From: Planctomycetota bacterium
GTDB lineage: Bacteria; Planctomycetota; SZUA-567; H5-PLA8
Assembly (NCBI GenBank): GCA_038227875.1
Contig: JBBRPR010000048.1
Location: 1 to 64,000, forward strand
DNA: 64,000 nt
Direction: 5' to 3'
The translations under genes and the position numbers were made by a program. Numbering within the stretch: position 1 is the stretch's first letter; every line of letters starts with the position of its first letter. Positions 28,578 to 64,000 of the stretch are shown here, piece after piece. Under the pieces are notes generated by a model that was not told the origin of the DNA, searched no databases, and worked only from the letters and a program-made list of their open reading frames with translations.

Positions 28578-30536
28578 TTACTTCGCCGCACCCACCGTAT
28601 CCTTGGCGCCCAGCGCTCGCGCTTCGTCGATGGGGTCGGCGTCGGTCAGTTTCATCCCGCGCTCTTGTTTCACCGCCGCTTGATAGTTCACGTAGCGGAT
28701 CGTCGCCGCTGCGAGGAAGATCAGATCGATGGCGACGGCGCTGAGCACGTAACTCTGGCCACCCGCGCCGAAGCCGTACGAATGCAGCCCGGTGCCGAGA
28801 ACGAAATTCACGCCGTACCAGGCCATCACCACCGAGTTAAAGCAGAGCACCGCGCCGAAGCTCAGTCCAAAATTGCCCCACAGCCCCGTGAAGCGGCCGT
28901 GCAGCACGACCAGGTAGCACAGCAGCGTGATGAAGGCCCATGTCTCCTTCGGATCCCAGCCCCAGAAGCGTCCCCATGAATAGTAGGCCCAGACTCCCCC
29001 GAGGATCGTGCCACAGGCGATCAGCAGCACGCCCACCTGCATCGCCCGGTACACGTACTGATGCAGCTCGCGGTGCGTGTCCCGAGCGCCGGGATTGCGC
29101 AGATGCTGCCAGAGCGTCACGTGCCCCAACACACAGGTCAGCATGAAGGCCGCGTAGCTGAGCGTGATAGTGAGCACATGAACCGTCAGCCAGAAATTGT
29201 TGCGCAGCACCGGCACCAGCGGTTTGATCTCCTGCCCGAATCCCGGGACATCGGAATTGCCCGTGATCACCGGAAGCATGTCCATCAGCACCAGGCAGAG
29301 AAATCCGGCGATCGCGCCACAGAGCATGAAGTAGCGCTTGCGGTAGATCAGTTCGAAGATCATGCTGAAGAACACCGCGCCGAATCCGACCCAGACCACC
29401 GACTCATACATATTCGAGACCGGCGGCCGGCCGGCAATCAGGCAGCGCAAGACGAAGCCATAGACGTGGTAGGCCAGACCCAGCATGTAGACCGAGAAGA
29501 TACCGCCATACACGAACTTGTTTTTGACGCGGAAGCACAACGCCCCGGCGATCGTCGCCACCAGATACAGCAGCCATGCCGAACGAAACGGGCGCATTTT
29601 GTTGTAGCTGATTTCGCGGTCCAACGCGTCGTGGCTGGGATAAACGGACGGGCTCAGGTTGATGAGCGTACTGCGCAGGCTCTGCGAGGCCGTGTCGAAC
29701 AATCCGGGATCGCGCATGCGATAGGACTTCAGCAGTTCACTGAATGCCGCTTTGACTTTCTCCGTCTGCTCCTTCGTGTAGTACTTCGGCACGGATGCAG
29801 CGTCGGCACTGTCGGCCAGCTTCGCCAGTGAGATCCACGTGCCGGATGCATCGCTGGGATGAGGAATCAGATTCAGCGATTCAAAGCCCGCGTTGATTTC
29901 CGACAGGGTTTCCGTCCGCTTCTGGACGATCTCCGCCTCCTGTTCCAACGAGGACAGATCGCGCTCCCGATCCGCATGGCGCTTCTCCATCGCGCTGCGG
30001 CAGAGCTTGTCCAGCGCGCCATTTTTCTGAATTTCCGACAGGCTGTATTGCTTCTCACCGCGAGGCAAGCCCAGCGCATCGATCAGCGGACCATAGGCCA
30101 CCAGGATCACCGGCGTGCGCGACCAGTCGCGGGTGTGAAACCAGATTGAAAGAAACACGTCCATCGCCGGCAGTTTCTGGCCGGTCTCCTTGTCCTTCAG
30201 GTATGGCGCCGAAGAAAATAGCGGCAGCCCCACCAGTTGTTCCACGCGCTCGTTGGCATAGGTCTGCAGCGGCTTTTTGCGTCCACCTTCCTGGATCGCC
30301 AGCATTTCCAACACGGAGAAATCCAGTTCGCCGGTAAGCTTCACGCTGGGAAGCTCTTCCTCACCCGCTGAGTTCGGGCCGTCCGCAGCAGGCCCAGCCG
30401 CCGGATCCACGCCCGCATGCGGATTCACCGGATGCTCGTCCTTCGGGGCATCTGAGGCGCGAGCCGTTCCTACTGCAATTAGCACCATGCCCGCCACAAA
30501 CATCGCGGCACTCTGTCGAATTCGAATCGTGTACAT
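28578..30536 (-). CDS. ccsA: Cytochrome c biogenesis protein CcsA/ResC (system II) with large periplasmic N-terminal region
   Basis: WWD domain WAYYSWGRFWGWDPKETW; PVSNMYES; WLTVHV; GLHSYG. Confidence 0.95.
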   Translation of the reverse strand: MYTIRIRQSAAMFVAGMVLIAVGTARASDAPKDEHPVNPHAGVDPAAGPAADGPNSAGEEELPSVKLTGELDFSVLEMLAIQEGGRKKPLQTYANERVEQLVGLPLFSSAPYLKDKETGQKLPAMDVFLSIWFHTRDWSRTPVILVAYGPLIDALGLPRGEKQYSLSEIQKNGALDKLCRSAMEKRHADRERDLSSLEQEAEIVQKRTETLSEINAGFESLNLIPHPSDASGTWISLAKLADSADAASVPKYYTKEQTEKVKAAFSELLKSYRMRDPGLFDTASQSLRSTLINLSPSVYPSHDALDREISYNKMRPFRSAWLLYLVATIAGALCFRVKNKFVYGGIFSVYMLGLAYHVYGFVLRCLIAGRPPVSNMYESVVWVGFGAVFFSMIFELIYRKRYFMLCGAIAGFLCLVLMDMLPVITGNSDVPGFGQEIKPLVPVLRNNFWLTVHVLTITLSYAAFMLTCVLGHVTLWQHLRNPGARDTHRELHQYVYRAMQVGVLLIACGTILGGVWAYYSWGRFWGWDPKETWAFITLLCYLVVLHGRFTGLWGNFGLSFGAVLCFNSVVMAWYGVNFVLGTGLHSYGFGAGGQSYVLSAVAIDLIFLAAATIRYVNYQAAVKQERGMKLTDADPIDEARALGAKDTVGAAK

Positions 30537-61162: not shown

Positions 61163-61209
61163 AAAAAGAAACCGGCTTGAGGAGCGATCCTCAAGCCGGT
61201 TTTGTTTTC
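61163..61209. terminator. Bidirectional rho-independent terminator
   Basis: AAACCGGCTTGAGGA-gcga-TCCTCAAGCCGGTTT flanked by A- and T-tracts between convergent genes. Confidence 0.9.
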
Positions 61210-61224
61210 ACGGAACTTCAGTCC

Positions 61225-64000
61225 TTAGTTCACGGACTGAGGCGGATTCAGACGCGTCCAGCCCTTGATCACCAGATTCCACTTGGGATCGGCACTGTTC
61301 GCAGTGAACTGCACCAAGCGCCGTACACGCTGGTCGTAATTCATGATCAGCGTTTTCGGATGCTTTGCATTGGCGCGACCAGTGACCAGGAGTCCGAGAT
61401 CCGGAGCAACCAACGCGCCGTTGACCACCATGACGCCTTCGGAGCTGGACGCCATTTCCTTCGCATACTGTTTGAAATCCTTCGCATTCGCACCAGCCGT
61501 GGTGGCCGGGTACGCATAGGTCGGATTGGTCGGAGCGAGCTTGGTCGGATAACCCGCCGGAGCAGCGCTACCGTAGGGAACCTGAATCGTTGCCGTCGCC
61601 GGCGAGCCAGGAACGGTGCCAGTCTTTTCTGAGGCGATATAGCTGGCCGGCACCGCAGGCGGGGTAGTGCCCTGCATGTAGTTGGCGGTCTTGGTGGTGG
61701 TCGTGGCCGAAGTCGTTCCGGTTGGACCATAGCTGCTCGTATCCATGCTGTATCCGCCCGGCATCGCTGGCTGCGAACCGGTGCGATATGTGCCGGATGC
61801 GACCTGCTGCACCGATCCTGTCGTCGTGCTAGTCTTGGTGTAGCCGGCGGGCACCGATGGCGGGGCAGCCGTATTGTAGTATGTAGCCGAAACAGTGGTG
61901 ATATTGGTGGTGGTCGTGCTGGACTTCGTGAAGCCGACGGGCACCGTCGGAGGTGCGGCCAAATTATAGTAAGCGACCGAGGTGCTGGTATTGGTCGTGC
62001 TGACCGTGCCGGTCTTGGTAAAGTTCACCGGGACCGCTGGTGCGACCGTCGTGTAGTTGGCTGACTTGCTGGTCACGGTCGTTCCTGTGGTGGTGCTGAC
62101 CTTGGTCCAGCCCGCGGGAACGGCTGGAGGAGAAGCCAGATTGTAGTAGACGGCCGACGTGCTGGTGACAGTCGTGGTCACCGTGCCCGTCTTCACTGCA
62201 TTGGCCGGTACGGATGGCGCCGTGGTCGTATAGTTAGCCGACTTGCTGGTCGTCACAGTTCCCGTCGTGGTGCTGACCTTGGTCCAACCCGCCGGCACCG
62301 CAGGGCCTGTGCTGGGTGCGTAGTAGACGGCCGAAGTGCTGGTCGTCGTCGTTGTCCCGGTGCTCGTCTTGGTGTAACCAGCCGGCACTGCCGGCGCTGA
62401 TGTGGTGTAGTTCGCGGACTTCGTGGTCGTCGTCGCGCCTGTCGTGGTGCTGGCAAGCGTATAGCCTGACGGAACCGCGGGATGGGCGGCCGAATTGTAG
62501 TATACCGCCGAGACGCTCGTGACCGTCGTGGAGCTGGTGCTCTGCAGCGTATAGGTGGCCGGGACAGCAGGCTGAGCGCCAGCCGCATATTGCGCGGACG
62601 CGCTCGTCTGGTTCGCTCCCGTCGCGGTGCCGGTCTTCGTATACGTTGCAGGGACCGCCGGAGGCGCGCCAACCGAGTAATAGGCCGCTGAGGCGGAGGT
62701 CTGAACCGTACCCGGCGTGGTGCCTGTCTTGGTAAAGCCTGCGGGTACCGCCGGAGGCGCTGTGGAAACATAGTAAGCCGCAGACACGGAAGTGTTGGAC
62801 GAGGTGGCCGTGCTGCTGGACGCCTGAGTCACCGGCGCACCACCATATGTTGTAGGCTGACTGATCGTACCTGGAGGAGAGACCTGGACGACAGAGAACG
62901 GACCGACGCGGGAATATCCGGTTCCGGTATACACCAGCCACGTTACCGTGCTCACCGCCTGCGTATAGTTGTCGGTGTACGGTGTGCGTGAATAGTTGTC
63001 GGTGTAGGGCGTGCGCACATAGACGTCGGTGTACATCAGCTTGGTGAAGTTGTCCGTGTAAGCCGTGCGGGAATAGTTGTCGAAACTCTGAGTCTGGCTG
63101 TAGTTGTCCGTCAACGGCGTCACCGAGTACGTGTCGTAGTATTGAGTCTGAGTATAGTTGTCCGTATAGGGCGTCTGTGAGTATGTGTCGTAGGACGCCG
63201 GCTGCGTGTAATTGTCGGTGTATTTCGGTTCCGTGTAGTTGTCGGTGTACGGCGTGCGGCGATAGTGGTCGGTGAAGAGCGTCGACGAGTACGTATCGTA
63301 GACCACGTTGCCTTGGTAATTGTCGTACTGGTAGGTCACGTCCGGCACAGGTGTCGGCCAAGGACCCGGCTTGCTCGGATCCGGAGCCTGCGGTCCGCTG
63401 GTGATCGGGCCACTCTTATCCTGGTAATCCCCGGCAGCCTGGGGCGCCAACGCGCGGTTACGCTGAATGCCGAAGATGGCGTTGTTGGTGTAGAACAATC
63501 CATCCAGGCGGAAGGGCTGGCCGTCACGAGCGCTCAAGGCAGGACTTGGATCGCTGCTCGAGGCGTAGACTGCCTGCGACTGCGGCGTATGGAACTTGCG
63601 GTCCCATTCCTCATTCAGCAGGATGCTCCACATCGTCTGGGTGGACTTGTCGGGCGTGGCACCCAGCCACTGCGGATTGATCGCGATAACTGCAGCCTTC
63701 TGCGTATTCGTGACATCGGAGCTGTCGGTGAGAATGTTCTTTGTTCCTGAAGATGGATACTGCAGCTTCGTTGCAACACCATTGACAATGCTCCCGTTTA
63801 CGCCTTGGGACGCATCGCCTCCAATTGTCGTAGTGTCGTAAGCTTTCGACTTCTCTCCGCCCTTCCACATCGGCGGTTCCGTCGCCGTGCCGTTGCTCCA
63901 GTAACTGCCTTCTGTACCCGAGCGCTTGGAAGCGTCCGTGGCCATCTGCAACGAGTTCGTCACAGGCGCTTGGCTGCCGTACACAAACGCACCCACGGGA
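61225..64000 (-). CDS. 3' part of a large PilX-like/beta-helical surface protein with a long Thr/Tyr-rich repeat insertion; gene begins outside the window
   Basis: Frame open to the window edge; LDGLFYTNNAIFG..MVVNGALVAPDLGLL..MNYDQR..W C-terminal pattern; family call tentative. Confidence 0.7.
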   Translation of the reverse strand, partial: PVGAFVYGSQAPVTNSLQMATDASKRSGTEGSYWSNGTATEPPMWKGGEKSKAYDTTTIGGDASQGVNGSIVNGVATKLQYPSSGTKNILTDSSDVTNTQKAAVIAINPQWLGATPDKSTQTMWSILLNEEWDRKFHTPQSQAVYASSSDPSPALSARDGQPFRLDGLFYTNNAIFGIQRNRALAPQAAGDYQDKSGPITSGPQAPDPSKPGPWPTPVPDVTYQYDNYQGNVVYDTYSSTLFTDHYRRTPYTDNYTEPKYTDNYTQPASYDTYSQTPYTDNYTQTQYYDTYSVTPLTDNYSQTQSFDNYSRTAYTDNFTKLMYTDVYVRTPYTDNYSRTPYTDNYTQAVSTVTWLVYTGTGYSRVGPFSVVQVSPPGTISQPTTYGGAPVTQASSSTATSSNTSVSAAYYVSTAPPAVPAGFTKTGTTPGTVQTSASAAYYSVGAPPAVPATYTKTGTATGANQTSASAQYAAGAQPAVPATYTLQSTSSTTVTSVSAVYYNSAAHPAVPSGYTLASTTTGATTTTKSANYTTSAPAVPAGYTKTSTGTTTTTSTSAVYYAPSTGPAVPAGWTKVSTTTGTVTTSKSANYTTTAPSVPANAVKTGTVTTTVTSTSAVYYNLASPPAVPAGWTKVSTTTGTTVTSKSANYTTVAPAVPVNFTKTGTVSTTNTSTSVAYYNLAAPPTVPVGFTKSSTTTTNITTVSATYYNTAAPPSVPAGYTKTSTTTGSVQQVASGTYRTGSQPAMPGGYSMDTSSYGPTGTTSATTTTKTANYMQGTTPPAVPASYIASEKTGTVPGSPATATIQVPYGSAAPAGYPTKLAPTNPTYAYPATTAGANAKDFKQYAKEMASSSEGVMVVNGALVAPDLGLLVTGRANAKHPKTLIMNYDQRVRRLVQFTANSADPKWNLVIKGWTRLNPPQSVN

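Follow-up and report, generated by a model that had tools for sequence, protein, structure and literature searches.

Count-matched repeat arrays in the terminal protein of a planctomycete pseudopilin cassette: a candidate fold-back stalk

The surface fibres of Planctomycetota are poorly understood, and a giant gene in one genome of this phylum raises an unusual question about them: why should a single protein carry two unlike tandem repeats in exactly the same number? The window analysed here is a stretch of 64,000 nucleotides (nt) of a Planctomycetota bacterium (assembly GCA_038227875.1, contig JBBRPR010000048.1, here C48, positions 1 to 64,000). The gene occupies the minus strand of C48 from 61225 to 66267, and its product has 1680 amino acids (aa) counted from the first ATG; the open reading frame (ORF) passes the window end, and the 3' part at 61225..64000 (-) comprises 924 C-terminal codons plus the stop. 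An initial annotation of this part had proposed that an insertion of more than 600 aa at 61531-63333 separates two motifs of one domain and folds into a rigid hairpin rod. The anatomy is confirmed: LDGLFYTNNAIFG and VVNGALVAPDLGLL flank the insert, which measures 676 residues between YTNNAIFGIQRNR and VNGALV, and the coordinates given for the arrays were correct within ~50 nt at the 3' end. We propose, as the probable explanation, that the insert is a fold-back stalk built of two undescribed repeats and carried by the terminal protein of a pseudopilin cassette. In the order of the protein chain, the elements are as follows:

63469..63507 (-): core motif 1, LDGLFYTNNAIFG, invariant columns of the alignment, where the chain leaves the conserved core
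63331..63453 (-): N-terminal base linker of the insert, proline-rich, ..PDP.KPG.WPTPVP..
62953..63330 (-): outgoing arm (arm 1), 14 units each of exactly 9 aa, Y-T-D-N-Y-T-x-T-P, translated in one frame
62791..62952 (-): unique tip segment of ~54 aa, T.TW...G.GY....QVSPPGTI.QPT, read from the translation
61483..62790 (-): returning arm (arm 2), 13 clear units of 28-37 aa and a degenerate 14th at 61483-61599
61429..61482 (-): conserved C-terminal base linker, ..DF[KR]xYAKE..SSS.G..
61387..61428 (-): core motif 2, VVNGALVAPDLGLL, invariant columns of the alignment, where the chain re-enters the conserved core

What, then, are the two repeats? As first described, the translation contains 14 consecutive nine-residue units (9-mers) in a single frame, then a unique stretch of about 50 residues and finally units of about 30 residues (30-mers). 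The 9-mer array is frame-locked and contains no stray indels. Asp at position 3 and an aromatic residue at position 5 are present in 14/14 units of the window, and in the pooled 9-mers of eight proteins the Asp is kept in 84/92 and the aromatic in 92/92. For the second array, the expected number of about 14 units stands, with 13 that match the unit profile in a whole-genome search (E 5.6e-13 to 1.4e-7) and a degenerate 14th that adjoins the base, but the expected unit length of 28-33 aa had to be widened to 28-37 aa. The 30-mer consensus is xxSAxYYxxxAxPAVPAGYTKTSTTTGTxx; every unit has its PxxP motif and a pair of conserved aromatics, and two prolines and an aromatic are almost invariant. Arm 1 is composed of 18% Tyr and only 2% Ala, arm 2 of 24.7% Thr, 12.4% Ser and 10% Pro, and both look beta or polyproline-II (PPII)-like.

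At the level of DNA, direct repeats are spaced by 27/54 nt in arm 1 and by 87-93/177 nt in arm 2. They are only 60-78% identical, and the arrays are therefore old and diverged rather than low-complexity noise. The spacings of 54 nt (18 aa in the 9-mer arm) and 177 nt imply a two-unit super-period in both arms. No indels or joints were seen in the repeat arrays in contigs of 4 sequencing runs, and no length variants appeared among them. A common origin of the 9-mer and 30-mer repeats found no support (hhalign probability 0.1%). An enrichment of N-x-S/T sequons in the insert proved not to be general across homologues, and the tip is not better conserved than the arms when the two are compared. 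The tip contains two cysteines in P0004 and P0007, one in P0006 and none in the window protein; these residues may form a lineage-specific disulfide at the turn.

Neither repeat could be attached to anything described. The unit profiles had no other match in the six-frame translation of the genome (53,153 ORFs) and none in the 400 other genomes searched from the phylum, so that 1/401 genomes carries either repeat. Sequence searches of the PDB returned nothing for an alignment profile (A1), the 30-mer arm or the 30-mer unit profile, an Atlas search with the insert gave no usable match, and a single-protein search of genome contigs found nothing. Fragments shorter than 924 aa that bear either repeat were not found, and the two repeats occur only jointly. 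Literature searches found no description of either repeat or of the host family.

The crucial observation concerns the numbers of the two units among homologues. Nine insert-bearing sequences were found, P0001-P0008 and the C-terminal fragment L004a on the metagenome contig L004, and eight of them are countable, P0008 being too irregular. The 9-mers were counted by a frame-locked parse, and the 30-mers by an iterated unit profile plus the base unit:

P0001: 14 9-mers, 14 30-mers
P0002: 14 9-mers, 14 30-mers
P0003: 12 9-mers, 12 30-mers
P0004: 16 9-mers, 16 30-mers
P0005: 10 9-mers, 10 30-mers
P0006: 10 9-mers, 10 30-mers
P0007: 10 9-mers, 10 30-mers
L004a: 6 9-mers, 6 30-mers

The hand counts that had been said to match in the window protein are correct (14 vs 14), and the two counts are equal in 8/8 countable homologues over a range of 6 to 16. 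The same relation emerges without any counting when arm lengths are taken from PG.W.T..P to QVSPP and from QVSPP to DF[KR]xYAKE: across all nine sequences, P0008 included, r=0.991 with a slope of 3.33 aa per aa, which is 30/9. Phylogenetically independent contrasts on a core-only tree uphold this one-to-one co-variation, which the initial annotation had put forward as a check (8 contrasts, r=0.994, slope 3.36). The repeat count changed at least 4 times on this tree and stayed equal between the arms each time; even the sister taxa P0004, P0007 and L004a possess 16, 10 and 6 modules, respectively. A closer view is afforded by the global alignment of P0001 with P0003, which are 63-72% identical over the insert. 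Arm 1 shows exactly two gaps in it, both of 9 aa, and arm 2 one gap of 32 aa and one of 30 aa; apart from these, only gaps of 1 and 2 aa occur. Read from this alignment, the gaps are four separate indels that preserved equal counts.

Where does the insert sit, and what did the protein look like without it? In order to address the host family, query residues 1-940 were scanned against 1.84 billion representative proteins (E<=0.001), which yielded 369 relatives, mostly of 600-950 aa. The family is undescribed: it has no Pfam match, and the head of the giant protein is a ~900-residue beta-rich domain with a conserved CxxCH motif. Among the 154 family proteins examined, a pattern search recognised both flanking motifs in 53. 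Their spacing is 14-38 residues in 44/53 and 520-764 in 8/53, the latter being the insert clade, and no intermediate spacings were seen among the 53; the 510 residues measured in P0064 seem to stem from a spurious motif match. Where the loop of a relative was read directly, it has 7-32 residues. Insertion-free versions, whose existence had been posed as a question, are thus represented by 44 relatives with a 14-38-residue loop at the insertion site, and since the flanking motifs of these ordinary relatives lie so close together, the ends of the insert must meet.

On the core-only tree the insert-bearing proteins form a single clade with 100/100 support. The family as a whole is present in 59 of 401 species genomes sampled from the phylum; the insert was detected in the window's genome alone, that is in 1/401 by unit profiles and in 1/20 within the order, where the second match in the 20-genome sample spans the C-terminal core only. 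Two long open frames, G214 and G208, were set aside as ordinary members with over-extended frames (the G208 loop has 14 residues, and motif 1 is unrecognised in G214). The idea that the short loop of ordinary relatives represents a single ancestral module was likewise dropped, as unit-profile scores are ~0 bits.

The genomic setting points to a fibre. The giant gene is the last of a four-gene cassette that encodes a 163-aa protein, two prepilin-type proteins and the giant protein. Directly upstream and on the same strand lies a 358-aa protein that scores 22.9 bits with N_methyl, against a Pfam cut-off of 21.2; the other prepilin-type protein, of 301 aa, reaches 16.1 bits, under the cut-off, together with sub-cut-off matches to PilV, XpsH and GspI. 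The search for pilin or type II secretion genes upstream, as initially recommended, has therefore revealed two prepilin-type genes next to the giant gene. The 163-aa product is a small membrane/coiled-coil protein with five weak matches in PHROGs (E 6e-4 to 3e-3), a database that holds no family for the giant protein or for either pseudopilin. PDB searches of both pseudopilins and of the N-terminus of the giant protein gave nothing informative. The four-gene order recurs in the metagenome loci L005 and L004 and part of it in L006, where a prepilin-type orthologue scores 27.2 bits with N_methyl. The metagenome contig L004 carries two tandem cassettes (L004:3-8738). In the first, the giant protein has 6/6 modules; that of the second belongs to the irregular P0008 type and is truncated at the contig end.

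The giant protein itself begins with a hydrophobic segment that resembles those of PilX and GspK. Its short relatives P0015 and P0010 show sub-threshold matches to PilX_N (E 0.03-0.07) and to the GspK N-terminus (E 0.002), and in one nearest Atlas cluster PilX_N occurs in 43% of members, which we regard as a lead. The 1680-aa protein matches 0 Pfam or NCBIfam families, PilX_N (PF14341) and the GspK N-terminus (NF037980) included, and has no PDB sequence match. Assembly machinery is encoded in the genome, though nowhere on contig C48: T2SSE (GspE/PilB-type ATPase) is matched 24 times above its cut-off, in 11 cases over nearly the full length, secretin 9 times and Peptidase_A24 (prepilin peptidase) once. 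Judging from gene order and the weak N-terminal similarity, the giant protein would be a tip component of a type IV pilus-like or type II pseudopilus-like fibre. Weak paralogous matches to core residues 524-631 were noticed at G000:C80:9656-9811 and C20:28543-28833, the former ~2 kb from a GspE/PilB-type ATPase gene (C80:11978-13129).

How could these features be accommodated in one structure? In the fold-back reading, a stalk would have replaced the short surface loop of a conserved beta-rich head in one clade. The chain would run outward through n nine-residue units, turn within the tip segment of ~50 residues and return through n thirty-residue units, and each outgoing unit would be paired with one returning unit. 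With such one-to-one pairing the stalk length is set by n, and any change in length would require that a unit be gained or lost in both arms. The most economical functional interpretation is that the stalk presents the tip segment at a set distance, for instance in adhesion, or serves as a spacer or probe. A more specific version, which we hold at somewhat less than an even chance, is an all-beta 'zip' stalk: each module would consist of one outgoing 9-residue strand and one returning ~30-residue unit, and the whole would be a length-programmable rod on the pilus tip that evolves only by compensated double indels at mirrored positions and represents an undescribed fold class.

Structure prediction allows the question of contact between the arms to be approached. 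The 9-mer arm was co-folded as a partner with the tip plus the 30-mer arm, as separate chains and with 3 controls, and received the verdict 'weak support' (score 0.47 vs 0.00 for the best control). The mark used for this verdict is reached by 116/157 solved complexes and 2/215 mismatched pairs, but at a score of <=0.60 it is reached by just 18/157 solved complexes and by both passing mismatches; these calibration counts hold roughly, as our own alignment was used. The runs share at least 96% of contacts, with a partner pLDDT (predicted local distance difference test) of at least 79. Model confidence for the arms is 80-83 and 78-81 when they are folded together, as compared to 27 and 31 beside unrelated partners. 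The co-fold suggests a folded, paired stalk, and the poor confidence of the lone arms leans towards interleaved or nested modules. In AlphaFold2, the 6/6 homologue L004a (488 aa, 9-row alignment) obtained a mean pLDDT of 40 and a predicted template modelling score (pTM) of 0.25; residues ~140-210 alone are confident (pLDDT 73-91, three long strands), and this region extends from the last 9-mer through the tip into the first 30-mer. Of the hairpin rod first proposed, the equal counts, the insertion-free relatives and the upstream prepilins speak in its favour, whereas the structural part is left with a co-fold score of 0.47 and AlphaFold2 arms below 50.

A number of observations weigh against the fold-back stalk and its paired arms, and they concern the counts, the register, the predictions and the placement. 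The sample consists of nine insert-bearing sequences from ~5 lineages, and the counts of P0005, P0006 and L004a rest partly on our own parsing because several unit matches are weak. The register of pairing is not singled out by the units themselves: when 9-mer position 2 is matched with YY-type versus single-Y 30-mers, agreement lies at 0.54-0.75 across several offsets, with similar scores for the antiparallel offsets 0 and -2 and the parallel offsets -3, -1 and +1. Several registers of the right parity match about equally because both arms alternate two unit types. Summed mutual information likewise picked out no register and is dominated by small-sample bias. In the comparison of P0001 with P0002, the diverged 30-mers 5 and 4 are mirrored by the most diverged 9-mers, 10 and 11, yet the mirror correlation does not reach significance (rho +0.43, p=0.12), and for P0005/P0006 it is -0.54. 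The paired indels of P0001/P0003 are compatible with a mirrored register and also with a shifted parallel one. The arms are complementary in charge in P0001-P0004 and P0008; the remaining homologues do not share this feature.

With respect to structure, the co-fold verdict is explicitly 'weak' and its output lists no contacts. Both arms of L004a stay below a pLDDT of 50 in AlphaFold2; given this low confidence, the folded stalk lacks an independent prediction and disorder of the arms is possible. As for the location of the protein, 0/7 clade members scanned match any Pfam family at E<=10, PilX_N included, and it is gene order and weak N-terminal similarity from which the position at a pilus tip is drawn.

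Other arrangements could also produce equal numbers. The first is a layered geometry, in which the 9-mers form a single-layer antiparallel beta-meander, with one strand and an Asp-x turn per unit, a rise of ~0.48 nm and thus ~7 nm for 14 units, and the 30-mers cover it as a solenoid coil or as one PxxP clamp per strand. The counts would match since both bodies advance one rung per unit, and an up/down meander would account for the two-unit super-period in both arms. This alternative draws on a phmmer alignment with the G-box of CPAP (4bxp_A, 4ld1_A), which keeps the 9-mer arm in register for 100 residues with one gap and in which the invariant Asp of the 9-mers falls on the Asp of the PDG turn of the G-box. 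The account of this TCP/G-box sheet includes its binding of a polyproline-II peptide by aromatic-proline packing (PMC3776556). The alignment is, however, not significant (E=0.2, 15.6 bits), a similar result might be obtained with any nonamer in which an Asp is fixed, and Pfam Tcp10_C has no match to the gene at E<=10. Furthermore, an autonomous meander or solenoid would not be expected to show the lone-arm pLDDT of 27-31 of the co-fold controls, although this is model confidence only. We consider the layered geometry rather unlikely.

It is less likely still, and in our view improbable, that the arms fold or extend independently, without unit contacts, and that loop closure merely forces them to an equal reach. 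The insert occupies a loop that is short in relatives, and closure is consequently needed under any model; AlphaFold2 also failed to give confident structure for the arms. Closure nevertheless demands equal lengths and not equal counts, so that 1:1 counts in 8/8 homologues would need a coincident rise per unit. Co-fold confidence, moreover, arises only when the arms are together, and neither arm was ever found by itself. The last alternative, a mostly disordered and possibly glycosylated Thr/Ser/Pro-rich spacer with counts equal by accident of shared ancestry, has the Thr, Ser and Pro content of arm 2, the low AlphaFold2 arm pLDDT and a PMT_2-plus-TPR glycosyltransferase-like gene directly downstream at one homologous locus on its side, but is very hard to reconcile with the strict position-specific conservation in both units, with a 9-mer array that keeps a single frame without stray indels and with equality kept through at least 4 count changes on the tree.

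The fold-back stalk as such would not be without precedent. In the antigen I/II adhesins of streptococci (SpaP, SspB, BspC), two unlike arrays, Ala-rich A repeats and Pro-rich P repeats with units of 82 and 39 aa, flank a distal domain and fold back on each other, repeat against repeat, into a long stalk that projects the tip. In the A3VP1 crystal fragment, as reported in the account of its stalk, the A3 alpha-helix and the P1 polyproline-II helix are wound around each other for 155 A, and proline-aromatic packing contributes to stability (PMC3707005); the A and P repeats also figure in the domain scheme given for the family (PMC6586375). The planctomycete protein differs in that it lacks an alpha-helical Ala-rich arm, an LPXTG anchor and any Pfam match, and its stalk would be a loop insertion, with units of 9 and ~30 aa, in a pilus-cassette protein of a Gram-negative-type bacterium. 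Membership in antigen I/II was rejected, as no Pfam family matched at E<=1 or E<=10, and the resemblance is one of design only. Hence we are probably dealing with a known design that appears here as an all-beta variant with two undescribed repeats.

The G-box of CPAP/SAS-4 in complex with a STIL peptide (4bxp, 4bxr, 4ld1, 4lzf) shares with the insert nine-residue repeats, an aromatic and an Asp-containing turn, and, as far as the structural account goes, a sheet that serves as platform for a proline-rich partner packed on aromatics. It is outlined there as a single-layer sheet of ~20 antiparallel strands with type I turns (PMC3776556). In contrast to the insert, the G-box is eukaryotic, centriolar and free-standing, and its partner is a short peptide from another protein and not a count-matched array. 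Membership in Tcp10_C (PF07202) was discarded, since the whole-genome search at E<=10 produced 8 weak matches and none in the giant gene.

Chains that travel out and back are likewise known from other proteins. The gp37 needle, at the tip of the long tail fibre of phage T4, is portrayed as a chain that runs to a distal head and back in an antiparallel beta needle (PMC9659904); unlike the insert, it is a trimer with six strands from three chains and without two count-matched repeat families, and PDB and PHROGs searches found no sequence relation between them. Si3 of the cyanobacterial RNA polymerase, an elongated loop insertion of ~645 residues with nested sandwich-barrel hybrid motifs, is presented as several small beta domains assembled from distant parts of a chain that folds over itself (PMC10895346). 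It offers a precedent for the nested-module reading of the insert, but is cytoplasmic, has a domain type of ~80 aa and lacks separate arrays of first strands and bodies. In the Gram-positive periscope proteins stalk length is apparently tuned by repeat number (PMC8201768). These are one-way tandem arrays of whole domains, whereas the planctomycete insert needs compensating changes in two arrays. Finally, the minor (pseudo)pilins GspK and PilX, of the type that caps type II secretion and type IV pilus fibres, resemble the giant protein as the last and largest gene product of a prepilin cassette with a hydrophobic N-terminus; the difference is that no family model reaches its cut-off and that the planctomycete head is an undescribed ~900-residue beta-rich domain with CxxCH.

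If the arms do pair unit by unit, there would be a second means, besides the alpha/PPII stalk of antigen I/II, of making a rigid projection out of two unlike arrays; this one would be all beta and placed in a loop of a pilus-associated protein. Its rule would be that each length change needs one indel per arm, and the homologues with 6, 10, 12, 14 and 16 modules form a natural series that could serve biophysical studies or provide a scaffold for design. Should the zip stalk be true, it would constitute a clean natural case of coupled repeat-number evolution within one polypeptide. Pairing would also hint at length-tuned tip structures on many uncharacterised pseudopilin cassettes of Planctomycetota.

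Besides the insert, the head of the giant protein contains a motif of possible interest. CxxCH, the signature of covalent haem c attachment, is present as N-V-S-C-T-L-C-H at L001:9579-9593 (C48 ~65578-65592, outside the window) and is invariant in the clade. It is found in 104/109 family representatives of at least 550 aa, and 44 of these have no other cysteine. Cytochrome c assembly genes exist in the genome, one of them a Cytochrom_C_asm gene in the window at 28797-29420 (-). In Myxococcus, a non-canonical cytochrome c is described as acting with PilY1 (PMC8833165). The Thr/Ser-rich arm raises a question of O-glycosylation as well: at L005:8783-11626, directly downstream of P0008, a 948-aa protein combines a PMT_2 (protein mannosyltransferase-like) domain with many TPR repeats. 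This gene was seen at L005 alone and not at the window locus.

The genome has four PSCyt2 genes, and FtsZ_C was not found at 88% completeness, which is consistent with Planctomycetota. The cassette closes 22 nt past the stop codon of the giant gene with the following element:

61169..61202 (-): terminator-like hairpin with a 15-bp stem and a T run (L001 5203-5170), at the cassette end

This hairpin is strong and GC-rich and separates the giant gene from a convergent gene that, by its translation, is isocitrate dehydrogenase-like. On the other side, upstream of the cassette and outside the window, a divergent gene for a hydroxylamine reductase / hybrid-cluster protein lies at L001:13309-14622 (+).

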